From a virus (Duplodnaviria; Heunggongvirae; Uroviricota; Caudoviricetes): a DNA stretch of 64,000 bases. The stretch spans positions 78,633-142,632 of the IMG/VR virus record IMGVR_UViG_3300032893_000003; one strand, 5' to 3'. This document shows positions 9,301 through 48,505 of the stretch, piece after piece. How positions within the stretch are numbered: position 1 is the first letter of the stretch; each line of letters opens with the position of its first letter. Position numbers and translations under genes: made by a program. The notes beneath the pieces are model-generated. The model made no database searches, was not told the origin of the DNA, and worked only from the letters and a program-made list of their open reading frames with translations.

Positions 9301-9307
9301 ACAAAAA

Positions 9308-9384: not shown

Positions 9385-9406
9385 ATATCTAAAACAAAAC
9401 CTCCTT

Positions 9407-9484: not shown

Positions 9485-9485
9485 A

Positions 9486-9609: not shown

Positions 9610-9851
9610 AAGTATCTAACTCTAAATTTTAACTGAAGTTAGACGATATCCCCCCTGAGCTCAGTGCTCAAATATGACGGTAGACTTGGGGAGAGTCGTA
9701 AAAACTTCATGAAAAGAGTTTAGATGAAAAAATGGAGCCCGTCCACCACTAAAGGTGAAGATAAATATCCTCTCTGGAGGCGTAAGCGGCCATGTCACGC
9801 TTCTTTGGACTCGCTGGTCCAGGATTGATATCTATCAACGGGCATAAGGTT

Positions 9852-10418: not shown

Positions 10419-10436
10419 CCGCGCTACAAACAAAAA

Positions 10437-10861
10437 TGGTGTAGGTAGCGGGAATCGAACCCGCGTCCACAAAAACTTTCAAACGCTCTCTACATACTTA
10501 GCCGTCTTCTGGTCAGGCTGACCCGCTTGCAGTTAAACTCGGCAAGCTCACGATTGGGGGCGGACTACACCGCCAGATCCACCAGCCCGTATTTTGCGCT
10601 ACGACGGGACCGCGCAGGATTTGCCGCGTGTTTTTATCCAGGTCACTTCAGCCAGCTCCTGGTTTTGGTGGTCTTTAGTTTCAAGGCTTCCACCGGCCCC
10701 GCGCGCTACGGATTAGGCAGCGCGAGCGACTGCAGCCTTGCGGCCGAAGTCAACGTGTACGACATTGTCGCCACTTAATAAGTTGCATCATTGATGATCC
10801 GTTCATGCTCCGGGGTATGCAAACGCTTGTCTGTATTCCGTGTCGAAACCATGTTACCCAC
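10437..10861 (-). ncRNA. ssrA: tmRNA (transfer-messenger RNA, SsrA)
   Basis: The reverse complement begins GTGGGTAACATGGTTTCGACACGG (compare the E. coli 5' end GGGGCUGAUUCUGGAUUCGACGGG). It ends ...CTAAGTATGTAGAGAGCGTTTGAAAGTTTTTGTGGACGCGGGTTCGATTCCCGCTACCTACACCA, with a tRNA-like T-arm, acceptor pairing GTGGGTA/TACCTAC and CCA. An internal ORF ends ...GCT GCA GTC GCT CGC GCT GCC TAA (AAVARAA*), consistent with a tag reading frame. Confidence 0.85.
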
Positions 10862-12286: not shown

Positions 12287-13423
12287 TTACTTAATTTTAA
12301 TTCCAACACCGCCTTTACCCACACGATACTTATTCCCGCGCCATTCGATTTTTTGACCCACAAGCGTATGCGCCCACAGGGGCAAACTTAAGAGCTCACG
12401 AAGAAGCCACGCACCGATATCCTTGAAATTAAAGAATCTATCTTGCGTGGCGGATAGTGAAACCATGTCGGCCATGAACCAAAGGGTGAAATGATACGCA
12501 AGCACCTGCAGCGTATGAGCCGGATCAATGTGCTGCATAGCCACATAGGCTATAGCGCCTGAGCTAAAAAGCCCGTAAAAGGGCTCAAACAGGAAAACAA
12601 AAACATTGTGTCCTTTACGCATCCGGCCCCAGCGCACATGGCGCGTCCAGAACTTTTTAAAGCTGTAGTTTTCAAGCGTTTGTTTAATCGGGGCTGACAT
12701 TACATGCGTCTTATGACCAAGCGCCTTCATCTTCTGACCAATCATATAATCTTCAGCAAGATAGTTTCCAATCGAGTTAAGTCCACGGAATTTGCGAGCC
12801 GTAGACTTTCTAAACAGCATCGATGCCCCTATGATGATGGGGAAACCTAAAAGGTTCGCTAGGAAAATAAACCGCACATAGAACGTGCTTAAGTAAGCCA
12901 TTTCTAAATATTGACCTAGCCCTGAAGGATTTACGACCGTAGACGCAGCTGTAAGAATGCCCATTGTTTTTGTGAACCCATTACGGAGTGACCACAAGTA
13001 CTCCTTATGAGCAATTGAGTTGCTGTCGCTGATAAGAACAAGATCGTTTTTCGCTGCTTCGTAAGCCCAATAAATATTTTGAATCTTCGGATTTGTAAAA
13101 AAGCGACACGGTTTAACGATAAGCTTAGCTGGCACTCTGTAGTAATGGGCTATGAGTTTTCGAATCACATCACAAGCGGTATCTCCATAGCTTTCAACAC
13201 AGAACAGAAGCTCATCGCCTACAATGAACTCCTGTTTAAAAAACGTCTCAAGCTTTTTTTCTAAGCCTTCGCTAAAGCCCTTAACCGGTTTTAAGATGGT
13301 AATTGGTTCCATTCGGGTGAGCGATTTTGGCGGTTTAAAGTAATAATTATAAAGCACAAGCCACGCTCCGAAGACCGTGAAAAAGAGAGCTATCATCCAT
13401 GACAGCAATAGCAGCTCGTACAC
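12287..13423 (-). CDS. membrane glycosyltransferase, family 2 (GT21/ceramide-glucosyltransferase/HpnI-like)
   Basis: 378 aa with an N-terminal TM helix, ILKPVKG, the AEDYMIG (D/ED) motif and the WTRHVRWGRMRK (QxxRW-like) motif. The start is GTG with a GAGG RBS. Confidence 0.7.
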   Translation of the reverse strand: MYELLLLSWMIALFFTVFGAWLVLYNYYFKPPKSLTRMEPITILKPVKGFSEGLEKKLETFFKQEFIVGDELLFCVESYGDTACDVIRKLIAHYYRVPAKLIVKPCRFFTNPKIQNIYWAYEAAKNDLVLISDSNSIAHKEYLWSLRNGFTKTMGILTAASTVVNPSGLGQYLEMAYLSTFYVRFIFLANLLGFPIIIGASMLFRKSTARKFRGLNSIGNYLAEDYMIGQKMKALGHKTHVMSAPIKQTLENYSFKKFWTRHVRWGRMRKGHNVFVFLFEPFYGLFSSGAIAYVAMQHIDPAHTLQVLAYHFTLWFMADMVSLSATQDRFFNFKDIGAWLLRELLSLPLWAHTLVGQKIEWRGNKYRVGKGGVGIKIK

Positions 13424-23350: not shown

Positions 23351-24331
23351 TCATGTCGATGTGCCATTGTTCTCCCTATACCATTTAATTGTTTCAGCCA
23401 ACCCAGTCCCGACACTTACCCTCGGCGTATATCCGAGGGAGGCCTTAGCACGTTCGATGTCCGCACGAGAACATGGAATGTCTCCCTTACGCCAGTCTGC
23501 GCACTGCATATACTTTGTCGGAAGTGGAAGCCCCTGGTTACAAAATTCCTTAAGAATTTTTAGAGAAAGCTCATCAAGCGTCATATCGCTGCCCATACCG
23601 ATGTTATAGACCTTACCTCCGACAACATCTTTATCAGCGGTAGCCGCCGCAAGAATGGCATCAACAGCATTGTCTACGTAACAAAAATCTCTGGTTATTC
23701 CGGCACTTCCATACAGAATGCAGGGCTTTAGCTCCAAAAGAGATGTTATCCAGTTAGGGATAACAGCCGCATAGCCGCCCGTTGATTGCTGCCTCGGACC
23801 AAAAATATTAAAAAACCTTAAGCCCACCGCCGAAAGTCCAAGCGAGTGATGATACGACTCAGCTACGATCTCGTTTATTCTCTTAGAAGTTGCGTAAGGC
23901 GACAGGGGCTTGCCAATGATGCTCTCGGTTTTAGACGCGGACAGGTCATCGCCGTAAACAGCACTTGAAGAGGCATAGATAAATTTCTTTACGCTAGTGC
24001 CTCGTGCAGCATCGATGACGTTGTTAAAGCCGGTCACATTGTTCTCAAAGGTATCGCCGGGTTCCTCTATAGAGCGAACTACGCTGCATTTGGCAGCCAA
24101 GTGAACAACGACATCTACCTCTTTTGACAGATAGTTGCAAAGCAGCCGATCGCGAATGTCTCCGGCGTGAAGACTGAAATCTTTGCTTTTAAGCGCCCCA
24201 TAAAGGTTCCGACAGTTTCCGTTAGCCGAATGGTTGTCGAGTCCAATTACGCGCTTGCCCGCGGCCAAAAGACGATCCACCAGATGAGAGCCTATGAAGC
24301 CCGCGGCACCAGTGACAAGCCAACGATCCAT
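23351..24331 (-). CDS. NAD-dependent sugar-nucleotide epimerase/dehydratase (extended SDR)
   Basis: 326 aa with GAAGFIGSHLVDRLL (Rossmann fold), YASSSAVYGD and YATSKRINE (YxxxK). Confidence 0.85.
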   Translation of the reverse strand: MDRWLVTGAAGFIGSHLVDRLLAAGKRVIGLDNHSANGNCRNLYGALKSKDFSLHAGDIRDRLLCNYLSKEVDVVVHLAAKCSVVRSIEEPGDTFENNVTGFNNVIDAARGTSVKKFIYASSSAVYGDDLSASKTESIIGKPLSPYATSKRINEIVAESYHHSLGLSAVGLRFFNIFGPRQQSTGGYAAVIPNWITSLLELKPCILYGSAGITRDFCYVDNAVDAILAAATADKDVVGGKVYNIGMGSDMTLDELSLKILKEFCNQGLPLPTKYMQCADWRKGDIPCSRADIERAKASLGYTPRVSVGTGLAETIKWYRENNGTST

Positions 24332-29426: not shown

Positions 29427-30080
29427 TTAGGTAGAAACCTTTGCACTTACTTTTTTTGTAAATCCGTATCCAAAGCAGCATAAAAGAAAGGCATAAAAAG
29501 CTATCTCTGGAACTTTAAAATCAGTCAGACCTTCAATAAAGATCCGAACACCCGCGATAGTGATGAGCAAATAAGCCGCATCCTCAAGTCGCGGAAACGT
29601 CTGCATAAGGGTTGCAAAAAACCCTGCCGCAAGACGCATGGCGATGATACCGACGCAACCGCCTGCCACCATGATCCAATACACATCTGTTACAGTAACA
29701 GATGCGAGAACTGAATCAGCACTAAAAGCAATGTCAGTGATCTCAACCATGAAGACGATCTTCCAGAAATGAGCCGATACCGCTTTGGTATCGGCTTCAT
29801 CCCCCTCTGAGTCATCTCCCCAGACAAAATACTTAACTGCTAAATAAAGTAGGTAGGCAGCGCCGGCAAATCTCAGCCATTGATAGGTCAAAATTTGTTG
29901 CAGGAAGAAAAGAGCAATGATCCTAAAACCAACCGCTCCCCAAATACCATAGGTCAACGCCTTGCCGCGCCGACCACTTGGCAGATGTTTTACAATGCCC
30001 GCAATTGCAAGTGCGTTGTCCATCGACAAAGCCACTTCCAAGAACACAAGTAGTAACACCATAAAAAGCTGAGATGCCAT
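29427..30080 (-). CDS. TerC-family integral membrane protein
   Basis: 217 aa, multi-TM, with LEVALSMDNALAIAGIV matching the TerC family motif. ATG start with RBS AAGGAG. Confidence 0.7.
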   Translation of the reverse strand: MASQLFMVLLLVFLEVALSMDNALAIAGIVKHLPSGRRGKALTYGIWGAVGFRIIALFFLQQILTYQWLRFAGAAYLLYLAVKYFVWGDDSEGDEADTKAVSAHFWKIVFMVEITDIAFSADSVLASVTVTDVYWIMVAGGCVGIIAMRLAAGFFATLMQTFPRLEDAAYLLITIAGVRIFIEGLTDFKVPEIAFYAFLLCCFGYGFTKKVSAKVST

Positions 30081-30212
30081 TTGCTATTCTCCTTTTAAAC
30101 TTGTTTCGATGTCCTTCTCAACGCGCTTCTTCCAAAAAAGAAGCGCGTCTTTGAACCGGACAACGAACAGGGTACCAACGACCCCAACCGCTAATCCGAA
30201 AGTAAACATGAC

Positions 30213-30890
30213 TTATTCGTCCAGCGCTGCGATCATCGCGTCAATGAGAGTGACGTTTTCCAGATCATCGACGGTTTTAGCGTTCACGATGTCGAACTTC
30301 GCCCCTTCTTTTTCCAGATGGTCGTCAAGGCGCTTTAAATAAGCAGCGGCCTTGGCGCACTTGCCAACCTGAAGGAAAGAAATCCCAGCCTCATCGTCAT
30401 GGTCAAGTTGCTTTGTGAACTTAACGATTGACGATGCTACTGCATCTTCATTATCCGGCTCACCATCGGTGACACAGACAATCATGATGCCGTTTGGCTT
30501 GGCATTCTTGGCTTTTTTGTTAGCGACATAATCGTCGAAGCAGACTTGAAGCGCTGCTGCGAGATTCGTGCTTCCTGCTGGCCAGTTTTCCGCAAACACA
30601 TCCTTCACCTTGTCGGGTGTGGTGTTCGGGTACATTTTAGCCTGGCTAGAGAAGGGAACTACGGTGATGCCGTCGGGATCGAATTCGTTCAGCTTTTTAG
30701 CCAAAGCGATCGTCGATTCCTGGCAGTAGTCCCAACGAGACTTCCCGTTAGCCGTATCGGCCTCCTCCATCGAGCCCGACTTATCGATAACTACATAGTA
30801 GTCACGATTTTGCAGACGCGCGACGGCAGCTGCCTTTGCTGCGGCAGCTGCGCTTACCGGCGCTGTCGGCTGTTGTTGTGTTGTGTCCAT
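30213..30890 (-). CDS. von Willebrand factor A (vWA) domain protein, TerY-like
   Basis: Contains the MIDAS motif VVIDKSGSM followed by a vWA-like topology (VCVTDGEPD). The tool start at 30929 is TTG; the ATG at 30890 has a GGAG RBS. Confidence 0.7.
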   Translation of the reverse strand: MDTTQQQPTAPVSAAAAAKAAAVARLQNRDYYVVIDKSGSMEEADTANGKSRWDYCQESTIALAKKLNEFDPDGITVVPFSSQAKMYPNTTPDKVKDVFAENWPAGSTNLAAALQVCFDDYVANKKAKNAKPNGIMIVCVTDGEPDNEDAVASSIVKFTKQLDHDDEAGISFLQVGKCAKAAAYLKRLDDHLEKEGAKFDIVNAKTVDDLENVTLIDAMIAALDE

Positions 30891-31077
30891 TTGTGTCTCC
30901 TTTGTTATGGGTTGATGGACTTCGTTCAAATCTCTTCGTAAATATTTTCAAAACCGTGTGGTTCTCTTGTTATCTCAATAAAGACATCGCCGTACTTTGT
31001 CTTTATCTTCCACATATCCCACTGATCAAGCTCCTTCGTCACGTACCAACGAAGGAGCTTTTTAAATAACCAGAACT

Positions 31078-31572
31078 TCATTTGGTGTTCTCGTGAGGAC
31101 TGGGATCGACTACATTTAACTTAGCAAAATCACCAAATCTCTCTTTAGCGATTTTGTTATAAGCTAGTGCGGCCTCCTCTTCTGTATGGAAGCGGCCAAT
31201 AGTCGTATTTTTTCCAGATTCTTCGATGCCAGCTAGCCACCGCTTCCTGCGTTTGCCGTTACGGTCAAAACGAACGCCTTTGTATTTGCTTACAGTACCG
31301 GGCTGCTTCCTACTGTTTCTGACATTCTCTCTAGCGGTGCATATCCGTAGGTTAATACGTCGGTTGTCTAAAGGATTTCCGTTTATGTGGTCGACAGTCA
31401 TGCCTTTAGGACATTTAGTAATAATCCTGTGAAGAAACTCCCGAACACCATCAATCGTAACTCTAACGTAGCCGTCGTGTCGAACGTACAGGGACAATTC
31501 TTTAAATCTTTCGTAAAACTCAGCATCTACTATGACATAAGACGCTGAGTTTGCTGCTTTTAGTTTTCTCAT
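31078..31572 (-). CDS. HNH homing endonuclease with an AP2 DNA-binding domain
   Basis: Contains VDHINGNPLDNRRINLRICTARENVRN (HNH) and YKGVRFDRNGKRRKRWLAGIEESGKNTTIGRFHTEEEAALAYN (AP2). Confidence 0.75.
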   Translation of the reverse strand: MRKLKAANSASYVIVDAEFYERFKELSLYVRHDGYVRVTIDGVREFLHRIITKCPKGMTVDHINGNPLDNRRINLRICTARENVRNSRKQPGTVSKYKGVRFDRNGKRRKRWLAGIEESGKNTTIGRFHTEEEAALAYNKIAKERFGDFAKLNVVDPSPHENTK

Positions 31573-32393
31573 TTTGCCACTTTATCTAAGTTAAACAGAA
31601 ATCCATTCCCGCTACCGCCCACCACAGCAGGGGTGTGACCGTCCCACTTCTGCAGTGCTTCGTACTGCAGAAGTTGGGGCGTGATGCTGTTATTCTTCAG
31701 TCTGTTAGCCTCTGCTTCACCGCGAGCGACCGCAATCGCTTTCTCAGCCTGAGCTCTAGCTTGTGCTACCTCGTTTTCAAGTTGCAAAGCTTTCTGCGTT
31801 GCTTGGATCTTGGCGTTTAAAGAATCTTGCACAGCCTCGGGCAGGCGCATAGCGCCGACACTTGCGATGCTGATAACATGGATGCCGATCGGGTCTATTT
31901 GTGCGTTAACCGCTGCCGTTACTTTTGATAACAAATCACCCTTCTGCGATCCATAGATGTCTTCAACCTTCATCGTTCCGCCAATCGCGCTAAAAGCATT
32001 CCTCACCATATTGCGTAAAACAACGTTAGTGATTTCATCGATGCCTTTGCGATAAGTTGTAAAGATGTGCGCAACCTTCGCAGGGTCAATAATGTAGGAA
32101 ATGGCGATGTCAGTGTTTATCTGAAGACCGTCCTTATCCTGAAACGTCATGGATTCATCATGAGGAGAACCTTCATGAGGCGAAGCAGTCCAGACCCAGT
32201 TCTGCTGAAACGTTGGAAAGGTATAGAGGTCCACCGTCGGGGGAAGCCAGTAGTAGCCAACGCCCACAACCTCGCTATCAACCCCTTTTGAGCCACCCAT
32301 TGTATGGACCTTGACTCCCACATAACCTGCCGGAACTTTTGAGCATCCACAGGTACTAAGCAGCAGGCCTAGTAGGACCATTATCTTTTTCAT
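31569..32393 (-). CDS. SPFH/Band-7 (stomatin/flotillin-like) lipoprotein
   Basis: A lipobox signal MKKIMVLLGLLLSTCGCS is followed by the SPFH core and a coiled-coil tail (AQARAQAEKAIAVARGEAEANRL). Confidence 0.75.
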   Translation of the reverse strand: MKKIMVLLGLLLSTCGCSKVPAGYVGVKVHTMGGSKGVDSEVVGVGYYWLPPTVDLYTFPTFQQNWVWTASPHEGSPHDESMTFQDKDGLQINTDIAISYIIDPAKVAHIFTTYRKGIDEITNVVLRNMVRNAFSAIGGTMKVEDIYGSQKGDLLSKVTAAVNAQIDPIGIHVISIASVGAMRLPEAVQDSLNAKIQATQKALQLENEVAQARAQAEKAIAVARGEAEANRLKNNSITPQLLQYEALQKWDGHTPAVVGGSGNGFLFNLDKVAK

Positions 32394-32607
32394 TTGAATC
32401 TCCTTTGTTGTTTGGCTTATCGCAGCCAGTTATCTTTTTAACCATGAATCGCGTCATGAAATAAAATGTCGCGATAAAAATGGCATAGACAAGAATCAGG
32501 GCAATGTCGCTATCTTCGTCGAAGACAGCTGGCACTACCCACGCATAGAGAACCCAAGCGCCGACCGCGCTTAGGAAAATTGTGTCGAATATTTTTAACG
32601 CTTTCAT
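32356..32607 (-). CDS. small 2-TM membrane protein, NfeD-like partner candidate of the SPFH protein
   Basis: 83 aa with an ATG start and GGAGG RBS. It overlaps the SPFH start by 38 nt, a gene order typical of NfeD-SPFH operons. Confidence 0.4.
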   Translation of the reverse strand: MKALKIFDTIFLSAVGAWVLYAWVVPAVFDEDSDIALILVYAIFIATFYFMTRFMVKKITGCDKPNNKGDSNEKDNGPTRPAA

Positions 32608-32615
32608 CAGTCCTC

Positions 32616-34376
32616 CTAAATACTATTAATCACAAGTTCACTCAACGAACTATCAACCTTAGCCACAAAAATCTGTACGTCTTTCGGAAGCAGATCCACA
32701 TATTTGTCTACGAGGTCAGCATTATCAAAAAACATCCAGCTTGGCGGCTGCTTTGAAGCTTTACGCAAACTTTGGCAGAAAGCTAGGTCTACCTTCATGC
32801 GTCGACCGGAAGATAAACTTGGATAGAGGATGCCGCTACTTTTAACAGTTAACTCCCCGTCCTGAAATTCGACAACAACGCCAGGGACTTGTAAGGTCTC
32901 AAGCAGTGTCTTAGTTTCGATTTCTGGTAGCTTACGCAAAGCATTTTCAAGCTGTGCGCAGGAATCAACGTAGTGCTTCAACTCTAAATTAGACTTGGTT
33001 AGTAGCGCCTCTTGTGCCTTAAGATGCTCGAGCTGAGTTTCATGCCTTTTAACAGCATTGATATCGGTACTAAGCTCTAACTGTTCTTTTTGGAGTTCAG
33101 AGCGGTCGGTTGTAGGTTTTGATGGAGCCTGGGGCTTACTCGGGTTCATGGCTTTAAGCTTCTCATCGAACTCGTCCATTAGCTTATAAGTCCGCTCGTT
33201 CTCGCGTTCAATCTCGTTGATGCGCGCAACAGCTTTCCGATGGCTTTCCTCAAGCTTACTGATGGCCTCTTTTTGCGCTAAGATGTTTTCGTTAAGGGAG
33301 CGATTGTGCTTCTCAACAGCGCTTGCCTCTTTGTTGTATTCTGTAAGCATACGCTCGTATGCCTCCATGATCCGATTCAGATGGCTGCCGTCGATTTTCT
33401 GTCCACACTTGTCGCACTCAGCGCCTTCCTGAAGAGAAGCACCAGTTGGCTTCTTTGGAGCATTCGGAGGTGTCCTGAACTTTTGCTCAAGGGCGGCGAT
33501 CGTCTTGTTGAGATCAGCGATCTCCGTGTCAATAGTTTGAGTGTGCGTCTCCAGCTTATCCACTTCGTCAGTGGGTAGTATCTTCAGCTTTTGACGTTCT
33601 TTGCGATATTCCGCAAGCCTAGCTTCCTGACTTTCCCATCGCGCCAAGTCCCCGTTATATTTAGCAAGTATCTTGTCGTAGGTCGTATGCTCCTCAAGAG
33701 CCGCGTTAACTTCGTTAAGGCGAGCCTGGAAAGATTCTACATCTGCCACCGCAGCGCCAGCTAGTTGCTGTAACTGAGTGACAACGACCTTTAAAGCGCC
33801 CTCATTACTCGCCATCTTGTTTTGGGCTTGTCTTCTATCGCCCGCTATAGCGTCTGCATCAATCCTTGGATTTGTGAGCTTCACTTTAGCTGGAACCTGA
33901 AAACCCTGCGGCAATTGACCCATAAGAAGCGCGCGCCTATCTAATTGCGCAAGCTCTGCCATAACGGCTAATTTCTTCTCAGTCTTAAGTTCCATGAAGT
34001 AGCCAACATTCCAGCAGCTCATAAAGGCTTCAAGACTTGATTTCAAAAGGTTTTGCAGATCTGTCTGAGACATCGGAACCGGAGGCAAGTTCTGGCGGGC
34101 GAGCTTTAAAGCGCTCGTGGCTCCGCGGCGTTTCTTACGCATAATGGTAGACTTAGGTGTCGCGATTGCGACTTCCATCTCTTCGGCACCCTCAGTAATC
34201 AAATGATCTGGATTCTTTGTGCCCACTGCGTCTGTACCAAACCATGCAAAGGCTATCGCTTCTTTAATCGTGCTCTTACCGCATTCATTAGGACCGCGAA
34301 GGATGTTGATCCCAGGGAAGAATGAAAGTTCCCTTGTATGCCCTCTAAAGTTCACTAAACTGATTTTTCCGATCAT
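32616..34376 (-). CDS. Rad50/SbcC/T4-gp46-like SMC-type ATPase
   Basis: Carries Walker A GPNECGKSTIKEAIAFAWFG (compare T4 gp46 GRNGGGKSTMLEAITFGLFG), a long coiled-coil, the signature-like SSGRRMKVDLAFC and the Walker B MFFDNAD. The tool start at 34484 is GTG; I used the ATG at 34376 with a GGAGA RBS. Confidence 0.75.
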   Translation of the reverse strand: MIGKISLVNFRGHTRELSFFPGINILRGPNECGKSTIKEAIAFAWFGTDAVGTKNPDHLITEGAEEMEVAIATPKSTIMRKKRRGATSALKLARQNLPPVPMSQTDLQNLLKSSLEAFMSCWNVGYFMELKTEKKLAVMAELAQLDRRALLMGQLPQGFQVPAKVKLTNPRIDADAIAGDRRQAQNKMASNEGALKVVVTQLQQLAGAAVADVESFQARLNEVNAALEEHTTYDKILAKYNGDLARWESQEARLAEYRKERQKLKILPTDEVDKLETHTQTIDTEIADLNKTIAALEQKFRTPPNAPKKPTGASLQEGAECDKCGQKIDGSHLNRIMEAYERMLTEYNKEASAVEKHNRSLNENILAQKEAISKLEESHRKAVARINEIERENERTYKLMDEFDEKLKAMNPSKPQAPSKPTTDRSELQKEQLELSTDINAVKRHETQLEHLKAQEALLTKSNLELKHYVDSCAQLENALRKLPEIETKTLLETLQVPGVVVEFQDGELTVKSSGILYPSLSSGRRMKVDLAFCQSLRKASKQPPSWMFFDNADLVDKYVDLLPKDVQIFVAKVDSSLSELVINSI

Positions 34377-34839
34377 AGGTGAGTCTCCATTTGTTAAATA
34401 AATCTTTAGCGTTTGTCGCAACACAGAGTGGGCACTTTGGACTATCAAATGAATGCCATTCTTTGCCGACCATAAACTCTGCACCGCAATTATTGCACTT
34501 ATATCCTAGACCAGCCCATTTATGCCTCCAGCCCGCCGCCTGCCAATAGAGCAGTCTAAAGCCAGTAAGAAGGAGCCGAACCGCATGAACTAGCTGCGAG
34601 TTCTCGTGTCTTAAAGTTCCAATTTCATCTGTCATACGTTTTTGCACATGATGAAGTTTTTTAGTCTTCATAATACGCGCTTCAAGGTCAGCCACGCCCT
34701 GTTCCCGATCCAGTAAGTTTAGGACAAACTCGAAGTCATCCAACATTGGATTGGGAATAGGGACCGCTCTGACCCTTTGAAATTCAACCTTAATGGCATC
34801 AAGCCTGTCGCGCTCCTCTTTGGTCATTAATGGACCCAC
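34345..34839 (-). CDS. hypothetical protein with a C-terminal zinc-ribbon
   Basis: 164 aa with CNNCG...CPLC. Confidence 0.5.
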   Translation of the reverse strand: MGPLMTKEERDRLDAIKVEFQRVRAVPIPNPMLDDFEFVLNLLDREQGVADLEARIMKTKKLHHVQKRMTDEIGTLRHENSQLVHAVRLLLTGFRLLYWQAAGWRHKWAGLGYKCNNCGAEFMVGKEWHSFDSPKCPLCVATNAKDLFNKWRLTYDRKNQFSEL

Positions 34840-35438
34840 CGCCCCAAATAATCAAACATACTTTTTTGCTTCTCAGCAAAGTTGTGCTGTAAGAGAGCTA
34901 CAGAGTGATGAAGGGCGTCAGGAATCCCCATCGTCGTATTTTCGACATTTGCTATAGAGCAGCCGCGATCCGCGATGAGAGCTGTGCATGCGTCAAAAAT
35001 AACATAAGTCTGTTCGGAAAACTTCAGGTCCTTGTATTTAAGATCAGAAAAAAAGATATCGCGCGCTTGAGAGAAAACCTCCTGCAAATTTTTAGATGCT
35101 TCGAGTATTTCTTTATGCCGCTTTTCTGTCATCTCTTCGCTTTTAATGGGACCCGCGGGTGCCGCGGCACCTAAGACTTCCATAACGCTTTCTTTAGGCT
35201 TTTCCATGTTAGACCCCCCAGTCTGTGCCCCAGCTGTTTCTTGTAACGAAAGCCTGGATTGCATCTCTTTCACGTGTTGAATGGCACGTGCATAGTTGTG
35301 ACTCAGGTATCGAACCTGTGCTTTCAGGTCTTCGATCTCTTTGTCGGTTGCAGCTTCCGATGAAGCTGGTAAAGATCTCGTTTTTGCGGGCTGGGGAAGA
35401 AGCCATTGCATAAGCCATTGCTTGATCCGATTCATCAT
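34827..35438 (-). CDS. hypothetical protein
   Basis: 203-aa ORF. Confidence 0.5.
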   Translation of the reverse strand: MMNRIKQWLMQWLLPQPAKTRSLPASSEAATDKEIEDLKAQVRYLSHNYARAIQHVKEMQSRLSLQETAGAQTGGSNMEKPKESVMEVLGAAAPAGPIKSEEMTEKRHKEILEASKNLQEVFSQARDIFFSDLKYKDLKFSEQTYVIFDACTALIADRGCSIANVENTTMGIPDALHHSVALLQHNFAEKQKSMFDYLGRWVH

Positions 35439-35482
35439 ATGTCACCTCATTAATGGGGAATCCTAAAACTTCTGCAAGTTCT

Positions 35483-35860
35483 TCAAGGTTTCTTATCCGC
35501 GTCGCTCTTATCATGTTGATCCTCCATTTGCTTAACAATACTCTTAATCGTGATGTCGTACCAGTAGCTCCAGTTTGCCTTAATTTTTTCAAAGACAAAC
35601 TCTTTTGAAGCGGCCTTATCTTTTAAAAGCGATGCCATATATGTAGCCAAAAGCCCCACAGAGACTCCGGTAAAAATGTAGCCCGCGTCTTCAACTAAAG
35701 CCTCGTCTGGAATTTCGTTTGAAACACGGCACACGCATTCCTCGACCAAAGAACTTACTATCTTTTGTAGATTTTGAATGTGCTCTTGATGTTTCTTAGC
35801 AGCTGCCTTTAAACCCGTATTCATTAGGTTTTCTTTTTCCCAAAGTGCTTTTTCATCCAT
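35483..35860 (-). CDS. hypothetical protein
   Basis: 125-aa ORF. Confidence 0.5.
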   Translation of the reverse strand: MDEKALWEKENLMNTGLKAAAKKHQEHIQNLQKIVSSLVEECVCRVSNEIPDEALVEDAGYIFTGVSVGLLATYMASLLKDKAASKEFVFEKIKANWSYWYDITIKSIVKQMEDQHDKSDADKKP

Positions 35861-36182
35861 GAGGCATCTCCACGACTTGCTTCATAAGCTGTTCATAAGG
35901 GGCTAAATCTTTATGCAAATGCTCTGGCAGGTTTTTCCTCGCCAACTGAAATAGATCACAAAATGCGCGATAAAGTGTAGGAGCCGCAATCACGATGTTC
36001 CCGCGTGAACGGATAGTGCCGTAATTAAGGCCATGGATGTCGGCGACGCGCCCGCCTGTTTCGCGATCGATCACACAGGCCGATGTCCCACTCTTAACTT
36101 CCAGTCTCCAGTCAAATTCGATAGGCTTAGGTTTTGATGGCTGGTTTAGCAAAGGCTTCCAGTTTACGTTTGTCTCCGCCAT
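35853..36182 (-). CDS. hypothetical protein
   Basis: The tool ORF extends to 36257 through the promoter motif. The ATG at 36182 (MAETNVNW...) has a GAAGGAG RBS. Confidence 0.5.
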   Translation of the reverse strand: MAETNVNWKPLLNQPSKPKPIEFDWRLEVKSGTSACVIDRETGGRVADIHGLNYGTIRSRGNIVIAAPTLYRAFCDLFQLARKNLPEHLHKDLAPYEQLMKQVVEMPHG

Positions 36183-36268: not shown

Positions 36269-37084
36269 TTAGCTTTCAAGTTTTGGCTGAAGTGCGTTGT
36301 AAATAAACTTCTGCTCCTTACAAAGCATCTCTTCGCTGACGTATGTCATAAATAAAAACGTAGCCCGCGCTTCTGGCTCCTTGATCTCTCTTAACGGCCC
36401 CTGCCCTTCAATATGGAAATTACCGCCATTAAAATCAAGCTCGGGCGGCAACATTTTGTAGGCATAGAATGACCCCAAGCACAGACCGCCCATGGCTGCC
36501 AGATAAGCCTGATTTGTTTTGTTAAAGGCGTAAAGGCAGCTGCCTGGCTGATCAAACCGTCGATCGAGAAACCGAAGGAGCCTGAAAACCCCAACCATCC
36601 TTGCCGCGTGGTCGTTATTTTTAAGACCCCTTTGCAGGAACCGATCAAAGAAATGGGCTGTAAAAATAAAAATAACCGGCCGCGGCACGGCTTGCCTGAC
36701 GATGTAGACATACCCTTTCGGAGTTTCAAAGTAGTTCGCCACGCTGTAACTAAACCCGATGCGCTTCCTGTTTGCCGCGTTGATCGTAATGAAAAGTGTC
36801 GTCTTCTTCAAAGCTGACTGATGAAGTATGGTTTTCCCATCAAGCTTAGCCAGTAACTTTTTAGAATAAATCTTCCGGTGACCGCCCCTTCTAAACTCTT
36901 TTTCTATCGTTTCGGCTGAAAGCTTTTCGATATCCGAAACTGGAATAAATTCATCCCGCTGAACGCGATCCCTGAAGTTCTCTAAAATCTCGTCAACCTC
37001 AGGACCGCGCTTTTCAACAGGCTGTCCTTCCAACCATTTAAAAATTTCGTCTGGCATCTTGTTCGTGACTTCGACCATAGCCAT
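36269..37084 (-). CDS. hypothetical protein (271 aa)
   Basis: Intact ORF with no confident domain. Confidence 0.5.
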   Translation of the reverse strand: MAMVEVTNKMPDEIFKWLEGQPVEKRGPEVDEILENFRDRVQRDEFIPVSDIEKLSAETIEKEFRRGGHRKIYSKKLLAKLDGKTILHQSALKKTTLFITINAANRKRIGFSYSVANYFETPKGYVYIVRQAVPRPVIFIFTAHFFDRFLQRGLKNNDHAARMVGVFRLLRFLDRRFDQPGSCLYAFNKTNQAYLAAMGGLCLGSFYAYKMLPPELDFNGGNFHIEGQGPLREIKEPEARATFLFMTYVSEEMLCKEQKFIYNALQPKLES

Positions 37085-37367
37085 CTAAATCCTCCGTTGT
37101 TGCAGGCACGAGCTTAAATAGCGGCGTGACCCCTGCCTCTACACACATCCTCTTAGCTTGCTCATTGAGATAGAGATAAACAAGCATCTCCGGTTGTATC
37201 CGCACAGCATCAGCCCAGGCTACTAAAAATTTCCCAGGAATTGGTTTAATACTTAGCTCCACCGCATCCACTGTGCGCACATCACATCCCACAACTCTCG
37301 CTAAACTTTCATTTGTATGCCCAACACTCTGGCGCAGTTGGCGCGCGACAAGTCCGAACCCTTTCAT
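37038..37367 (-). CDS. XRE-family helix-turn-helix transcriptional regulator
   Basis: The N-terminal LRQSVGHTNESLARVVGCDVRTVDAVE fits an HTH_XRE domain. A palindromic operator lies immediately upstream. Confidence 0.6.
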   Translation of the reverse strand: MKGFGLVARQLRQSVGHTNESLARVVGCDVRTVDAVELSIKPIPGKFLVAWADAVRIQPEMLVYLYLNEQAKRMCVEAGVTPLFKLVPATTEDLDGYGRSHEQDARRNF

Positions 37368-37535: not shown

Positions 37536-38000
37536 TTAATTTAGTAACCGCTTTTCAAAGTTACTTTCGACGACCTGGTTTGTTTCTGTGTTGACTCGAC
37601 ACGTGAAGTAGTACGTGTCTGTACTCACCGCAAACACAAAACGCTTGATTTTTAGAACGCAGTCCCAAAAGTTATCGATGATTTCTTTATCAGCCGCGAG
37701 CTCGTACGAAAAGGTTTCCGTATCCTCATAAGAGGACTGCTCATCACTTGGAGGCAAGAACAAATAAAGCTGAAGCCTCGCTTCCGCTAGCTCGTCGCGA
37801 TCAAGGACCCCTCCATCGATCTTGATGAGATCTTCTTCTGGGGGATAGTCCTCGCAGCCAATATAAACGGCCGTGACGGTAGGAGATTGGTTCTTAAAGT
37901 TTCCGTCTTCGACAGGCGAGAGGACGAAATATTTGGGCTTAGGAAGCGCCTGCTCCCCTTCATTAGGGTCATTTGGCTTATTCCCCTCGTCTGTGCTCAT
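37536..38000 (-). CDS. hypothetical acidic protein
   Basis: The N-terminal 33 codons of the tool ORF (37536-38099) are Arg-rich read-through. I used the ATG at 38000 (MSTDEGNK...). Confidence 0.45.
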   Translation of the reverse strand: MSTDEGNKPNDPNEGEQALPKPKYFVLSPVEDGNFKNQSPTVTAVYIGCEDYPPEEDLIKIDGGVLDRDELAEARLQLYLFLPPSDEQSSYEDTETFSYELAADKEIIDNFWDCVLKIKRFVFAVSTDTYYFTCRVNTETNQVVESNFEKRLLN

Positions 38001-38734
38001 GCCCCTCCTGACGCGGCGCTCACGCCCGTTTTTGACATCGAGAACACCGTTCCTGTCACCTGATCGAAGTTTACGTAAACTAGGTCTCCTTCTTTCCATG
38101 GATCCGCCTGTCTCTGGGAACTAATAAGCCATGTGTAGAGAACGCCGCTGCGGCACATGGCTACAAGGCGGCCAGGGAGTTTGAAAATAAGGGTTGCCTC
38201 AACCGTTGCCGGCTCGGCCTGCCCACCGCCATCACGATTAAAAGGTTTTCTCAAAAATAATTCCCCATGTCTAATTTTCAGGGGGCTGCCGATTTTACGT
38301 CAAACTATGAAAGGTCTGGGAAGACTTTATAAAAGCGCTATCCATAAGCAAAAGTTTTTAAGCCGCGGAGTGACGTGTAAATGTCAATACTTCCTAAAAC
38401 ATAAAGGAACCCATGGAAAAAATTAATTTCACAAGAATGGGGGTAGATATATATTTGTGTTTTTAATTTCATTACGCACACAGTATATTATATAAAAATG
38501 GTATGACATTGATGACACTCACCGCGTTATTTGTATACACGAGCTTTATCAACATCTTGACGCAATAGGTGCCACTTTTATCAGCATAAAAAACGTCTAC
38601 TTTGTAAGCTATTCAGTGCGTCAATTTCTAGTGATTTTGTTTAGACGCGCCATAGTTAAATTGACGCGTTAGGTTACGGTGACAAAAATTGTCACTTTTT
38701 ATACGGAGCATTACGTGCTAGACTAGGTGCATCC

Positions 38735-38936: not shown

Positions 38937-39173
38937 ATGATGACTAACTCTATTCAATACAAGAAGCCTTTGTTGAAGCAGGGCGGCATTATATCCACCC
39001 AAGCAGATGGCGTAGTGTGTCTAGATATGTCTGGGACAATGTCCTACATGATCGACACGTCGGACGACAACGGGCAAGTTTGCTACTTCCAAAATCCCGG
39101 GGTCGGCGAAGACACAACTATGACCACGCTGTATGCCCAAGCAAAGGCGGCTTATCCAGCGTTATTTATTTAA
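38937..39173 (+). CDS. hypothetical small protein
   Basis: The RBS GCGGAGGTG sits 6 nt before ATGATG. The tool ORF 38919-39173 is in the same frame. Confidence 0.45.
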   Translation: MMTNSIQYKKPLLKQGGIISTQADGVVCLDMSGTMSYMIDTSDDNGQVCYFQNPGVGEDTTMTTLYAQAKAAYPALFI

Positions 39174-40148
39174 TAACGAATTGGGGTAAATGCTAAGATC
39201 CCTAACGCGGTTATCCGCTTCGCGCCTTATTCCCTTAAAAATTTTATTCAGATAACTGTCAGTCGCCTGTTTAAGAGAATAATAGGTACGGTGAGTTCTG
39301 TCTGAATAAAGCTGCCAGTTATTAAAAACAAGTGAGAGCTTTGCGTAAAGCTCTCTGGCATCAATCCCGCATCCAAGACGTAAGAGCTCAAGCCCGTATT
39401 TATCGTTGTCGTCCATGAGAGGGTTTGCGCGTACCAGCCCATCATTAGCGGGAGAGTAGATCGCAGGAATCCCCCGGGCCCAGGCTTCTTGAATGGTGTT
39501 TGAATAGCACTCAATATGTGAGAGGTGGATAACGACTGAGCAACGCCCCAGAATCTGTAAGAAGTCTTTGTGCTCTTGATTTGTAAAGGCAGGTGCTATG
39601 ATCTCGCAGTTTTTATGCGAAGCCGCAAAATCTCTAGCTACCTCAATAGCGCCATAAGTATTTTTAAAGACATTGTTTGTCCCGCCAAAAATCCCAATTA
39701 CAAATTTATCATCCTTTTTCTTCTGCGGCTGGACGGCAAAAGCGTGGGGAACAAAGATAGCCGGAATTTTCTTAATGTCGTTAAAATATCTCACAGTCGG
39801 CGGGTGCACAAAGCCTATGAGATCCGTTCCGCCAAGCGATTTTGTATCTAAAAATTGTTGCCAATAAATCTCATCGCAGAACATATTCCCATGAAAAGCA
39901 GTACTATGGTAAACGCTTAAGACAGGGAATTTTCGTTCGATTTTTAATTTAAGTAAAAGCTCTTTATAGCCCTTACTCCAGCCCCCAACAACGAGGATGT
40001 CGGGGTCGAGCGCCAAAAGAGTACGAACGTACTGAATAGTAGCCCCAGGATGCTCGATGTGAGGAAGGGGATAATACTCCGTGCACGTTGCCCGCGTGGC
40101 AATGGAAACGCCTTTAAAATTGGGGTTGGAAATGCCGAGAACCTTCAC
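39162..40148 (-). CDS. glycosyltransferase family 4 (GT-B fold)
   Basis: 328 aa with a C-terminal EX7E-type motif (ECYSNTIQEAWARGIPAIYS). The start is GTG with an AGGAG RBS. Confidence 0.7.
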   Translation of the reverse strand: MKVLGISNPNFKGVSIATRATCTEYYPLPHIEHPGATIQYVRTLLALDPDILVVGGWSKGYKELLLKLKIERKFPVLSVYHSTAFHGNMFCDEIYWQQFLDTKSLGGTDLIGFVHPPTVRYFNDIKKIPAIFVPHAFAVQPQKKKDDKFVIGIFGGTNNVFKNTYGAIEVARDFAASHKNCEIIAPAFTNQEHKDFLQILGRCSVVIHLSHIECYSNTIQEAWARGIPAIYSPANDGLVRANPLMDDNDKYGLELLRLGCGIDARELYAKLSLVFNNWQLYSDRTHRTYYSLKQATDSYLNKIFKGIRREADNRVRDLSIYPNSLLNK

Positions 40149-40160
40149 ACTCTATATCTC

Positions 40161-41123
40161 CTAAAGCGTCTGATAAATATCCAAAAACTTCTGTGTAGTG
40201 ATTGTAGGATGCCAATACTTTTCCATCCACTTCCTACTTCCGTCAGCGACTAACTTAACTCCGTAAGGGTCATGGATGCAAGAGATTAGGAGTCTTCTTA
40301 GTCCATACTTGTCGGCTATTCGCCACGGCAAAACGTCAGCTCCGGTTAGATCTTTAAGGGTTTTAACCTGGAGTTCATCAAGGCCGGCAATGGTCAATAG
40401 ACCCTGGCTTAGCGCTTCAAGCGAACAGAGATGGTATGAACCCGTAATGATCTCGTCGATCGCTATGTGTCCGCGGCCCCTATGTTCCAGGCACTCGGCA
40501 TGAGGCTTATCGAAGATAACTTCTGCCGTGATAAATTTCTTATTTACGAATTCTTGTAAGACAGGCACTGTCTCGTCATAGCCTTTGTCATCCCAGCCAG
40601 GTAATCTGATCCGCGAAGGGGAAAAGATGACTCGAAGCGGGATAGTCCAGTCTCTTTCTATCGGCGTAAGTTCGGGAAGGGTAATATCGATGACATTTGG
40701 GACGACTGTACATTCGGGCCACTGCCTTGGATGATACTGCCCAATAACGAGATGTTTTGCTTTAGCGTCCTTAAGTCCTTCCTCAATGTCCATCCACGTA
40801 GTGGATCTTTGCGAGTGGACTTGCCATACTCTGGCTTTCGCTTTTCCAATCTCCCAGAGATCGGGGTATCTTTTGAATAAGTCTTGTCTTGAATAGAAGT
40901 TATGGAAGTGCCAGATGTCGGCCCACCGCAAGGTATCTCTGATCTCTTCATACGTATTTTTAGTAGTTAACATATCTGATTTGAAAACTCTATTTTCATT
41001 TCTGTCAGATGCCGCGATGTGCCTGGACTGGACCTTGCCCGCTTGGAATTTATTAAGCGCCAGATTTAAGTTCATCGGCGCGCCGGCAATGGGGTTCTCG
41101 GTGATGTGGATGACTTTAATCAT
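40161..41123 (-). CDS. glycosyltransferase, GT-B fold (GT4-like)
   Basis: 320 aa with IAIDEIITGSYHLCSLEALSQGLLTIAG resembling the GT4 sugar-donor-binding region. Confidence 0.6.
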   Translation of the reverse strand: MIKVIHITENPIAGAPMNLNLALNKFQAGKVQSRHIAASDRNENRVFKSDMLTTKNTYEEIRDTLRWADIWHFHNFYSRQDLFKRYPDLWEIGKAKARVWQVHSQRSTTWMDIEEGLKDAKAKHLVIGQYHPRQWPECTVVPNVIDITLPELTPIERDWTIPLRVIFSPSRIRLPGWDDKGYDETVPVLQEFVNKKFITAEVIFDKPHAECLEHRGRGHIAIDEIITGSYHLCSLEALSQGLLTIAGLDELQVKTLKDLTGADVLPWRIADKYGLRRLLISCIHDPYGVKLVADGSRKWMEKYWHPTITTQKFLDIYQTL

Positions 41124-41209: not shown

Positions 41210-41410
41210 ATGGGCTCGACTTTACCACAAGGTACTTTGACACTATCGTCTCCAAAGTCTTTACAGGACGTGGAAAGAGCCTACATTCTTGAGGTATTAG
41301 TTCATTGTAGATGGCGCATCACAGCCACCTGCCGGATACTAAAAATTTCACGAGCAACTCTGTACCGCAAAATTAAACGGTATGGATTTAAAAAGGAAAC
41401 TAACACATGA
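41210..41410 (+). CDS. Fis-type (HTH_8) small DNA-binding protein, paralog 1
   Basis: The C-terminal ILEVLVHCRWRITATCRILKISRATLYRKIKRYGF matches the Fis/NtrC C-terminal HTH (compare [25 protein letters not shown]). Confidence 0.65.
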   Translation: MGSTLPQGTLTLSSPKSLQDVERAYILEVLVHCRWRITATCRILKISRATLYRKIKRYGFKKETNT

Positions 41411-42018
41411 GACACTTTTCGTCAGACTTTCACATTTGGCATACCAATGTTGTCGTAAAATACGGCCGCGGTCATTTCGGCACGATCGAGAACATGAACG
41501 AGTCCTTAATTAAAAACTGGAATGAGCGCGTGAAGCCAGAGGACACAGCCTATATGCTTGGCGACTTCGCTTTAGCCTGGCAGCCCGTGGGGCGCTACAC
41601 TCGCCGCTTAAACGGGAATAAAGAGCTTGTTGCGGGTAATCATGACTATTGTCATCCGGCCTGTAAACAGGCTCGGAAAAAGAATCCTGATCGCCAGTAC
41701 TGGATCAACCGCTACAAAGATCTTGGCTGGTCTAACGTATTTCTAGTCGGCGATATTACGTTAAAAAACGGTATGAGGTTTAAGATGTGTCACTTGCCCT
41801 ACGTTACGGGCGACTCGCATGACGTAAAGCACTTTGAGCACCGCATTGATGATCAGGGGATACCACTTTTATGTGGTCATGTGCACACTGCGTGGAAACA
41901 TCGGTATACGCCGAAAGGAACACTCATGATCAACGTTGGCGTAGATCAATGGAATTATGCGCCGGTATCAGAAGACGAGCTTTGCGAGTACATTAAAACT
42001 TTAGGAGGGCCCAAATGA
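41407..42018 (+). CDS. calcineurin-like metallophosphoesterase
   Basis: Contains SDFHIWH, GDF, VAGNHDY and CGHVHTAW motifs. Confidence 0.7.
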   Translation: MRHFSSDFHIWHTNVVVKYGRGHFGTIENMNESLIKNWNERVKPEDTAYMLGDFALAWQPVGRYTRRLNGNKELVAGNHDYCHPACKQARKKNPDRQYWINRYKDLGWSNVFLVGDITLKNGMRFKMCHLPYVTGDSHDVKHFEHRIDDQGIPLLCGHVHTAWKHRYTPKGTLMINVGVDQWNYAPVSEDELCEYIKTLGGPK

Positions 42019-42446: not shown

Positions 42447-42884
42447 ATGAAAATAGAACAGGTTTACCCAGGAGTCTTTAGAAGTGCCCAACCTGAAGTG
42501 CAAGCCGACTTCGAAGCTGTGTTAAAACTCGGCCAGAGGGTTGTAGTCATAGATCTAGAAAATGAAAGCGGAGAAAGCCCGTGGGAGCAGGCCCAGTGGG
42601 CACAGTTTGCAGCCCGGATAAACTTCCAAAGTTTTCCGATGTCGAGCTTTTGGCCACCATCAGAAGATAAGGTAAAGCAGATATTAGCCACTATTGCTTC
42701 GGCTGTCGCGCAAGGCTTTGTGGTTCTTGTCCACTGTAAGCATGGCCAAGACCGCACTGGACTTATTATAGGAGAGCTTAGGCTCTCGAAAGGCTGGGAC
42801 AAAGACGATGCTTGGGGCGAGATGCTTGATAAGGGATTTCACCCAATTCTTTTGGGGCTTACGATTTATTTCTGGTTACACTAA
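42447..42884 (+). CDS. protein tyrosine/dual-specificity phosphatase (CX5R)
   Basis: Contains VVLVHCKHGQDRTGLIIG, matching the HCxxGxxRT P-loop. Confidence 0.7.
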   Translation: MKIEQVYPGVFRSAQPEVQADFEAVLKLGQRVVVIDLENESGESPWEQAQWAQFAARINFQSFPMSSFWPPSEDKVKQILATIASAVAQGFVVLVHCKHGQDRTGLIIGELRLSKGWDKDDAWGEMLDKGFHPILLGLTIYFWLH

Positions 42885-47764: not shown

Positions 47765-48505
47765 ATGGAAGAATATTTTGTGGTCGCAGATATTGCGGGG
47801 CAGTTTGACGCCCTTCAAAGACTTGTAAAGCGTGTGCCAGAGACAACGCCCATCATTCTTGTTGGGGACCTTGTTGACCGCGGGCATGAATCTTACGAGG
47901 TTGTGGATTGGGCGATGAAGACCCCAAGGGTTACGAGTCTGCTGGGGAATCACGAACACATGATGTGGGACTATTACACTAATTACGGATCTAAAACCTT
48001 TTATGATGATATTGAGGGGCAACCGTGCTGGCTTTACTGTGGACAAAACGGCAATAACGGAGGGGGAGCTACGAGAGCCTCATATTCTAGGAATGGCTTT
48101 AAGCGCCCTCCCCAGGAACACCTTGATTGGATTATAAGCCGCCCACTTCATTTTCAAACGGAAGATAAGAAGATGGTTGTTACTCACGCGCCGATTCTAG
48201 CTGGCGAGACGTTGGAGTCAGCCCTTCAGAAGACGGCTGAGTTTGTAAAGAACGGCGGGTACCGCCACGCGGATGGATCCTTAATATGGAATAGGACCCC
48301 TCCTACACACAAACCATATTTACAGATTTTTGGTCACAACTCGTATTGGGGTTTGCAACCCTTCTACAGCAAGGATGACGAGGCTGTCGGGGATATCTAT
48401 GCTTTGTGCATAGATCAGTCAGGAAAGGGTATTTTAACAGGTTTTCACTGGCCAACCTACGAAATTCTAGAAGAGCACTACCTCGCAAGCGATAACCCAA
48501 AATAA
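47765..48505 (+). CDS. lambda-PPase-like Ser/Thr protein phosphatase (PPP-family metallophosphoesterase)
   Basis: Contains GDLVDRGHESYEVVDW, LLGNHEHMMWDYY and NGGG, closely paralleling lambda PPase (GDLVDRGAENVECLEL, RGNHEQMMIDG, LLNGGG). Confidence 0.75.
   Translation: MEEYFVVADIAGQFDALQRLVKRVPETTPIILVGDLVDRGHESYEVVDWAMKTPRVTSLLGNHEHMMWDYYTNYGSKTFYDDIEGQPCWLYCGQNGNNGGGATRASYSRNGFKRPPQEHLDWIISRPLHFQTEDKKMVVTHAPILAGETLESALQKTAEFVKNGGYRHADGSLIWNRTPPTHKPYLQIFGHNSYWGLQPFYSKDDEAVGDIYALCIDQSGKGILTGFHWPTYEILEEHYLASDNPK

Follow-up and report, generated by a model that had tools for sequence, protein, structure and literature searches.

A divergent zinc-hook ATPase, an SPFH lipoprotein gene pair and a putative homing endonuclease are probably independent neighbours in a gene array of an uncultured phage

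The 64,000-nucleotide stretch of viral DNA analyzed here (the window; Caudoviricetes, positions 78,633 to 142,632 of IMG/VR record IMGVR_UViG_3300032893_000003) belongs to an uncultured phage and carries on its minus strand the gene of an ATPase of the Rad50/SbcC/LmuB class, followed by genes for a small two-transmembrane (2-TM) protein, an SPFH/Band-7 lipoprotein and an HNH-AP2 endonuclease. The original prediction, made from the sequence alone, had joined these genes and four open reading frames (ORFs) upstream of them, between positions 31078 and 36182, into one membrane-tethered DNA-processing, defence or anti-defence module. All eight ORFs are present on the minus strand and closely packed, and profile and structure searches upheld the ATPase, SPFH and HNH family assignments, did not bear out the NfeD-like label given to the 2-TM protein and left the upstream ORFs without a family. 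The ATPase-SPFH-HNH arrangement itself is not a conserved system, and each of its parts is of a known kind. We consider it probable that three functionally independent elements lie side by side in a long co-directional early/accessory gene array and do not form a shared machine.

The synteny sample comprised 16 loci, namely the window and 15 others with ATPase homologues (36-52% identity) from metagenome assemblies and IMG/VR, whose ORFs were searched by jackhmmer with each window protein as query. A search of IMG/VR with the single ATPase sequence gave no loci; the family alignment gave three from IMG/VR and five in a metagenome scan, of which L014 is the same contig as L012 and L016-L018 are short fragments. 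An SPFH gene lies near the ATPase in three of the 16 loci (the window, L002 and L006) and the 2-TM ORF in two (the window and L002), and the HNH-AP2 gene occupies such a position in the window only, as does an ORF with a zinc ribbon described below. This is the outcome that the original prediction had named as its refutation: the linkage is mostly missing in relatives, and the HNH gene is an independent insertion.

The 274-amino-acid (aa) SPFH/Band-7 protein (31569-32393) was correctly recognized as a lipoprotein, with matches to Band_7 (2e-28; 100 bits against a cut-off of 23.6) and to phrog_200 'lipoprotein' (7e-74) and a hydrophobic N-terminal leader ending in Cys; a match to HflK (8.5e-6) was below the cut-off. 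Homologues turned up in 585 records of widely differing phages and in unrelated contexts, including staphylococcal, Pseudomonas, Klebsiella, Erwinia, Caulobacter, Bacillus and rV5-like phages. It shares its PHROG and the lipoprotein leader with the SPFH proteins of the T4-like phages 44RR, Aeh1 and RB43, and SPFH ORFs were listed among the accessory genes of T4-like phages already in 2006 (PMC1524935). With GAP31_159 of the rV5-like phage GAP31 it shares 38.5% identity and a small membrane-protein gene just upstream; however, the two upstream proteins are not homologous and the genomic neighbours differ, the GAP31 gene lying among unrelated genes with no SMC-like ATPase adjoining. The SPFH lipoprotein is thus a common phage accessory gene, for which our literature search found no experimental role.

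The 83-aa protein encoded just upstream (32356-32607) has two hydrophobic segments (residues 6-24 and 34-52) and a 28-aa polar tail. Its two TM helices were confirmed; the NfeD part of the earlier label was not, as no NfeD or OB-fold match was found in Pfam or NCBIfam. 'NfeD-like' is a positional analogy only: as in the bacterial NfeD-SPFH operons (YbbJ-QmcA/YbbK), the gene of a small membrane protein overlaps that of an SPFH protein, but the 83-aa protein lacks an NfeD domain, and its SPFH partner is a lipoprotein, with no N-terminal TM segment or hairpin as its anchor. The 2-TM protein matched phrog_11110 (4e-5), and its sole homologue among the related loci is in L002. A small TM protein always lying 3' of the ATPase was considered as a conserved feature of the family and rejected, since it occurs in only about six of the 16 loci. 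For comparison, the T4 47-46 cluster holds a gene for a predicted membrane protein, 47.1, and two small ORFs that are not nuclease components.

The SPFH proteins of the window and L002 are 82% identical while their ATPases share 52%, and the SPFH protein encoded after the L006 ATPase (9765-10532 of that locus) is only 24% identical to that of the window; both are nevertheless phrog_200 proteins, and the genes around them share 45-70% identity. This points to SPFH genes having been replaced, or gained on separate occasions, at the site after the ATPase. The SPFH lipoprotein and its 2-TM companion would assemble, during infection, into a membrane scaffold that faces the periplasm and is independent of the ATPase.

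The third element, a 164-aa protein (31078-31572), was rightly called an HNH-AP2 endonuclease in view of its matches to HNH_3 (1e-10; 41.5 bits, cut-off 24.8), AP2 (1.1e-6; 29.3 bits, slightly below the cut-off of 33.3) and phrog_99 (1.7e-39). Alignment of the window with L002 revealed the gene as a single clean insertion of about 495 bp between the SPFH stop codon and a conserved 51-aa ORF, and jackhmmer found no homologue in any of the 15 related loci. Homologues are instead spread over 561 phage records from many unrelated hosts, and the protein is 40-44% identical to annotated phage HNH endonucleases. Because of this precise insertion with presence/absence polymorphism and this spread, we read the gene as that of a putative free-standing homing endonuclease, a selfish insertion specific to the window, which resembles the phage HNH-AP2 homing endonucleases of PHROG 99 in its HNH_3 + AP2 architecture, its intergenic position and its polymorphism. 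Inserted after the SPFH gene, it would have no role in the function of its neighbours.

The close packing of the genes holds for the whole interval, where neighbouring ORFs either overlap, by 1-38 nt, or lie 8-44 nt apart, and GGAG-type ribosome-binding sites precede most of the eight starts. In order of transcription, the first two ORFs (109 and 125 aa) overlap by 8 nt, the second is separated by 44 nt from the third (203 aa), which shares a TAATG with the Zn-ribbon ORF, and the latter overlaps the ATPase gene by 32 nt; the ATPase and 2-TM ORFs are 8 nt apart, the 2-TM ORF overlaps the SPFH gene by 38 nt, and the SPFH gene overlaps the HNH gene by 4 nt. Nearly all long ORFs from about position 1 to 41 kb of the window are, however, on the minus strand, so that the studied interval is part of a very long co-directional gene array, and such overlaps are found along the entire 38 kb of minus-strand genes. 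Because they pervade the entire array they carry no specific signal for the ATPase, 2-TM and SPFH genes, and overlapping ORFs in phage early regions are no evidence of shared function.

Nor does the chain end in the HNH gene, as had been proposed. With overlaps or gaps of 3-4 nt it runs on through the 51-aa ORF (30926-31081), a vWA protein (30213-30929; VWA_2 1.6e-8, vWA-TerF-like 4e-4 and a weak TerY match), a 41-aa TM ORF (30084-30209) and a TerC-family membrane protein (29427-30080; TerC-like phrog_7180, 9.2e-37), all on the minus strand, to the first strong minus-strand terminator-like hairpin (29421-29401; seven G-C pairs followed by a T-run). In the other direction it begins before position 36182, the nearest terminator-like hairpin there being at 38773-38741. 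The 'operon' is therefore about 9 kb long and the limits first given to it are arbitrary, as the chain extends past both. The vWA, 41-aa TM and TerC genes (29427-30929), closed by the downstream hairpin, resemble a miniature Ter-like membrane module, and this segment of the chain was not found in the related loci examined.

A single machine made of the ATPase and the 2-TM/SPFH pair, perhaps including the HNH protein, would find some support in this packing, in the ATPase-SPFH order shared with L002 and L006 (the L006 SPFH being divergent) and in the small TM ORFs found 3' of the ATPase in L004, L012 and L009. Against it stand the missing ATPase-SPFH linkage in 13 of the 16 loci, the 585 phages with a phrog_200 SPFH protein and without this ATPase, the restriction of the HNH insertion to the window, the overlaps found throughout the array and the lack of any PADLOC model matching the SPFH or 2-TM protein. 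A physical link is further disfavoured by topology, because the SPFH protein is a lipoprotein exported by Sec and the ATPase, which has neither a signal peptide nor a TM segment, is cytoplasmic, placing the two on opposite sides of the inner membrane. We consider a single module highly improbable and favour independent elements, of which only the ATPase is mildly unusual.

The ATPase gene (32616-34376, minus strand) encodes a 586-aa CxxC zinc-hook SMC-like protein, and its start at 34376 agrees with the invariant M1 of 22 homologues. The earlier Rad50/SbcC/gp46-like call stands at the level of the class, on matches to AAA_23, phrog_77 and Rad50 profiles and structures. The generic Pfam family AAA_23 (7.6e-11; 43.5 bits against a cut-off of 27) provided the only curated threshold that the protein passes; it also matched phrog_77 'SbcC-like' (1.7e-24) and PADLOC LmuB (4.9e-23), and scored 51-65 bits with the NCBIfam Rad50 models, whose cut-offs are 700-1087. 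The family is small, with 23 clusters from metagenomes only, and the best identity in a tblastn search of phage records was 24%.

Alignment of the 23 family members (A1) indicated which of the class motifs are kept. The Walker A motif is intact (G28-x-N-E-x-G-K34-S/T, invariant in the 23 sequences), as are the Q-loop glutamine (Q104, invariant), the zinc hook (C321-x-x-C324, invariant and in the middle of the helical region) and a conserved signature-like motif L-S-S-G-R-R with invariant S522 and G524; basic patches are conserved at R80, K82 and R84 and at R181 and R182. The Walker B motif reads W-x-F-x-D551 (W-M-F-F-D551-N552 in the window) with D551 invariant, but position 552, that of the catalytic glutamate, is occupied by N in 16 and by D in seven of the 23 sequences and never by E. 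In place of the H-loop the last strand has Q-x-F-x-A-K/E-V-D (Q-I-F-V-A-K-V-D in the window), with no histidine.

Against PDB, the family profile matched archaeal Rad50 heads (5.5e-9) and, over query residues 256-377, the Rad50 zinc-hook structures 6zff (2e-6) and 1l8d (5.5e-6). The AlphaFold 2 (AF2) model of the ATPase (mean predicted local distance difference test score, pLDDT, 86.9) has a head with a folded-back antiparallel coiled coil, in which long helices flank residues 300-330, and Foldseek aligned it with Rad50 (3.4e-12), LmuB (3.5e-11) and SbcC (1.8e-9), and also with SMC heads and MukB; among viral models the matches were phage 'recombination endonuclease subunits', down to 6e-21. 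The profile of the C-lobe alone matched no solved ABC ATPase among PDB sequences, and the Walker B and H-loop assignment rests for this reason on the family alignment, the AF2 secondary structure and comparison with T4 gp46. An hhalign comparison with gp46 reached 94% probability over the N-terminal 115 columns only. As gp46 keeps TLILDE and IISHK at the equivalent sites, the deviation is specific to this ATPase family.

In the Walker A motif and Q-loop of its N-terminal ABC head, its antiparallel coiled coil with a CxxC apex, its C-lobe signature motif and its best sequence and profile matches (Rad50 heads and hooks), the protein resembles Rad50, SbcC and gp46, the last also in size (586 against 560 aa). 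It differs from them in having D-N or D-D and not D-E in Walker B, in lacking the H-loop histidine, in the shorter segment from the D-loop to the H-loop position, in a C-lobe unmatched by sequence and in the lack of an adjoining Mre11/SbcD/gp47 gene in the 16 loci. As judged from its motifs, the ATPase has the requisites for ATP binding, for dimerization of its heads through the signature motif and for dimerization through the zinc hook, and is without the catalytic base and the H-loop histidine.

A canonical gp46/SbcC-type recombination ATPase would be expected to have a nuclease partner, and the original observation that none adjoins the ATPase proved correct: no Mre11/SbcD-like gene was found within ±7 kb in the 16 loci, and neither an Mre11 gene nor a paralogue of the ATPase was found in the 64-kb window. 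The metallophosphoesterase previously noted at 41407-42018 (plus strand, 203 aa) is real, with matches to Metallophos_2 (4.2e-6) and to phrog_547, a generic 'phosphoesterase'. It is one of two metallophosphoesterases in the window, both small (203 and 246 aa) and neither adjoining the ATPase; the other is a 246-aa ORF (47765-48505, plus strand) recognized by its GNH[DE] phosphoesterase motif alone. Together with a 145-aa dual-specificity/PTP-like phosphatase (42447-42884, plus strand) these make three plus-strand phosphatase-type genes, none of which resembles Mre11.

The nuclease of such an ATPase could nonetheless be encoded elsewhere, in the other 111 kb of the genome or as the 203-aa metallophosphoesterase itself. 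According to the literature, almost all large myoviruses carry an SbcCD pair (PMC7824862), phage recombination endonuclease subunits are the top viral fold matches of the ATPase, phrog_77 is matched at 1.7e-24, and a small metallophosphoesterase is syntenic in L002 and lies 6 kb away in L010. Yet the catalytic glutamate and H-loop histidine of T4 gp46 are missing in all 23 family members, the C-lobe could not be related by sequence to any solved ABC ATPase, and no nuclease adjoins in the 16 loci whereas T4 gene 47 lies less than 0.5 kb from gene 46. The metallophosphoesterase is, moreover, too short to contain the capping and Rad50-binding domains of Mre11, lies 7 kb away on the opposite strand and belongs to a generic PHROG. 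On balance we find a canonical recombination ATPase with a distant nuclease unlikely.

The second known kin of the protein is LmuB of the Lamassu defence systems. LmuB has a CxxC hook, a short coiled coil and a Walker B motif of the form hhhhDD (long) or hhhhD[Q/S/T/E] (short) (PMC12663957), and it senses DNA ends and hydrolyzes ATP slowly, with stimulation by DNA (PMC12663957; bioRxiv 10.1101/2025.03.14.643221). The phage ATPase shares the hook, the short coiled coil, the 560-650-aa size class (about 586 aa) and a deviant Walker B (D-D or D-N) without the catalytic glutamate, although LmuB has been reported with D, Q, S, T or E at that position and not with N, the residue of the window. All 23 family members match the PADLOC LmuB models PDLC03859 and PDLC03863 (best 4.9e-23), and the LmuB structures 9uxh_F (3.5e-11), 9ux7_A and 9hqx_f were among the Foldseek matches. 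A small protein gene also lies directly upstream of the ATPase in some loci (a helical one in five of 16), as LmuC lies before LmuB.

Two forms of a Lamassu-like reading can be built on this, one in which the ATPase is an LmuB-type end sensor serving inter-phage competition with diverged LmuC- and LmuA-like proteins, and one in which it is an effector-less decoy shielding the ends of phage DNA, by capping them, from Lamassu, RecBCD or SbcCD of the host. PADLOC, however, has no SbcC model, which makes LmuB its nearest match by default, the PHROG SbcC-like and NCBIfam Rad50 matches are equally strong, and solved LmuB is not among the 60 best listed PDB profile matches, where Rad50 is on top. The five upstream proteins have no LmuA, LmuC or effector match (nuclease, Sir2 or protease) in PADLOC, Pfam or NCBIfam, LmuC being itself too diverse for sequence methods (PMC12663957), and the helical domain of the 203-aa protein encoded upstream matched neither LmuC nor the C-terminal domains of LmuA and SbcD in fold or sequence. 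No recognizable LmuA effector or LmuC accompanies the ATPase, which lies in an early gene array of a large phage and not in a bacterial or prophage defence island. A Lamassu-like system or counterfeit is, in our judgement, not likely either.

As the protein fails two Rad50 features (D-E with the H-loop histidine, and the Mre11 partner) and one Lamassu feature (LmuA), we assign it to neither family and regard it as a new, divergent protein within the Rad50/SbcC/LmuB class. RecF has a D-D Walker B and a slow, switch-like ATPase, and by its motifs the phage protein may be likened in mode of action to the LmuB/RecF-type slow ATPases acting on DNA ends. Under the favoured explanation of three independent elements, this orphan ATPase would dimerize through its zinc hook and through ATP-sandwiched heads, would hydrolyze ATP only slowly and in a switch-like manner, and would serve as a clamp, tether or sensor on phage DNA ends or on replication, recombination or branched intermediates. 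It would not be the motor of an Mre11-type nuclease and would work without a dedicated adjoining nuclease, and some members of the lineage may have the helical C-terminal domain of the 203-aa protein as a partner.

That candidate partner is encoded at 34827-35438 (minus strand) and consists of a variable N-terminal part and a conserved C-terminal helical domain of about 125 aa ending in G-R-x-x-H. A homologue lies next to the ATPase on its upstream side, or one variable ORF away, in five of the 16 loci (jackhmmer, confirmed with the family hidden Markov model), in a position that recalls the SbcD C-terminal domain or the LmuC gene preceding SbcC or LmuB. Word-indexed searches with this protein returned itself and later three proteins, and an exhaustive HMMER scan of 1.84 billion proteins found 23 representatives of the domain, a number equal to that of the ATPase family. 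AF2 predicted the domain as a confident all-helical bundle (pLDDT 88), for which Foldseek found nothing below E=6 in PDB and profile searches found nothing meaningful in PDB, Pfam or PADLOC. From its distribution the domain may be a lineage-specific partner of the ATPase.

Several points weigh against this picture. The partner role of the 203-aa protein draws on adjacency in just five of the 16 loci, and the slow-ATPase and DNA-end roles are read from motifs and homology. The 64-kb window covers part of a genome of about 175 kb, and a nuclease partner may lie elsewhere in it. In about six of the 16 loci one of the first two ORFs downstream of the ATPase encodes a TM protein, and the divergent SPFH gene at the same position in L006 may reflect selection for an SPFH protein at that place rather than simple inheritance, or a hot spot.

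The remaining genes upstream of the ATPase vary among the loci. Between the 203-aa gene and the ATPase, the window has the Zn-ribbon ORF (34345-34839, minus strand), of 164 aa from a GTG, for which the ATG at 34827, overlapping the preceding stop as TAATG, is the likely start. It matched Zn_ribbon_8 (8.4e-4) and an FmdB-type zinc ribbon (3.2e-5), both below the cut-off, and jackhmmer found no homologue in any of the 15 related loci. This slot is empty in L002 and holds unrelated ORFs of 133-142 aa in L006 (7622-8050) and L009 (4550-4951). Farther upstream on the minus strand, the 125-aa protein (35483-35860) has homologues in three of the 16 loci by jackhmmer, to which BLAST clustering adds L009, and the 109-aa protein that opens the originally proposed chain (35853-36182), with an AAGGAG ribosome-binding site, has homologues in six; no family could be assigned to these two or to the 203-aa protein in Pfam, PHROGs, PADLOC or NCBIfam.

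Beyond the interval first considered, the minus strand encodes a 271-aa protein (36269-37084; homologues in four of the 16 loci) with a conserved F-T-(G/A)-H-F-F-D-R motif and no match in Pfam, PHROG, PADLOC or NCBIfam; a 187-aa protein (37536-38099) has homologues in eight. Between them, overlapping the 271-aa gene by 47 nt, lies the gene of a 109-aa Xre-type helix-turn-helix protein (37038-37367, minus strand), whose homologues in relatives match HTH_3/HTH_31. No other neighbour of the ATPase is as well conserved; jackhmmer placed a homologue upstream of the ATPase in 12 of the 16 loci.

An identical ATPase sequence is present on a contig of 175,168 bp, which gives the genome size of about 175 kb. 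A DNA-level search of 50,697 phage records with the 6-kb region found similarity only over a 120-nt patch in the SPFH gene, to rV5-like phages, and in this search the phage has no cultured relative. The window contains a tRNA gene with a CTA anticodon, which would read TAG (858-931, minus strand; labelled Pyl by ARAGORN). Recoding of TAG was considered on this account and rejected, since the ATPase, the Zn-ribbon ORF and the 2-TM ORF end at TAG codons where their homologues end, and TAG is therefore a stop in the studied region.

Other features of the window, all on the minus strand, include a cluster of six tRNA genes (Ser x2, Tyr, Pro, Leu x2; 9016-9568), a gene resembling that of transfer-messenger RNA with the tag peptide GDNVVHVDFGRKAAVARAA (10437-10861) and auxiliary metabolic genes for an NAPRTase, a family-21 glycosyltransferase and an NAD-dependent epimerase/dehydratase (2649-4133, 12287-13423 and 23351-24331). 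Two proteins of 320-328 aa (39162-41123) are 70-78% and 48-64% identical to their counterparts in relatives, and the L006 homologue of the 328-aa protein has a faint glycosyltransferase match. A 1171-aa protein (54471-57986) combines a primase domain of the AEP-TOTE type at its N terminus with a Walker A motif at residue 779, and is flanked by helicases of the SNF2 family (58030-60084) and of XPD/DinG-like type (52149-54158); the three probably form a replication module of the phage.

As the ATPase, SPFH and HNH genes are not a system, no new biology follows from the module idea. The residual value lies in a small family of zinc-hook SMC-like proteins of uncultured phages that has kept ATP binding and the hook, has lost the catalytic glutamate and the histidine and has no nuclease or effector nearby. 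Because hook-bearing SMC-like proteins with a deviant Walker B sense DNA ends in Lamassu, the phage orphan may reasonably be considered for a role in tethering or protecting ends or in counter-defence. In its boldest form, which we rate as very unlikely, the family would be an effector-less relative of LmuB and Rad50 that clamps phage DNA ends and replication intermediates, possibly with the 203-aa protein, and so hides them from Lamassu, RecBCD and SbcCD. If true, this would amount to a counter-defence of the SMC type in which the phage has copied the sensor of the host.

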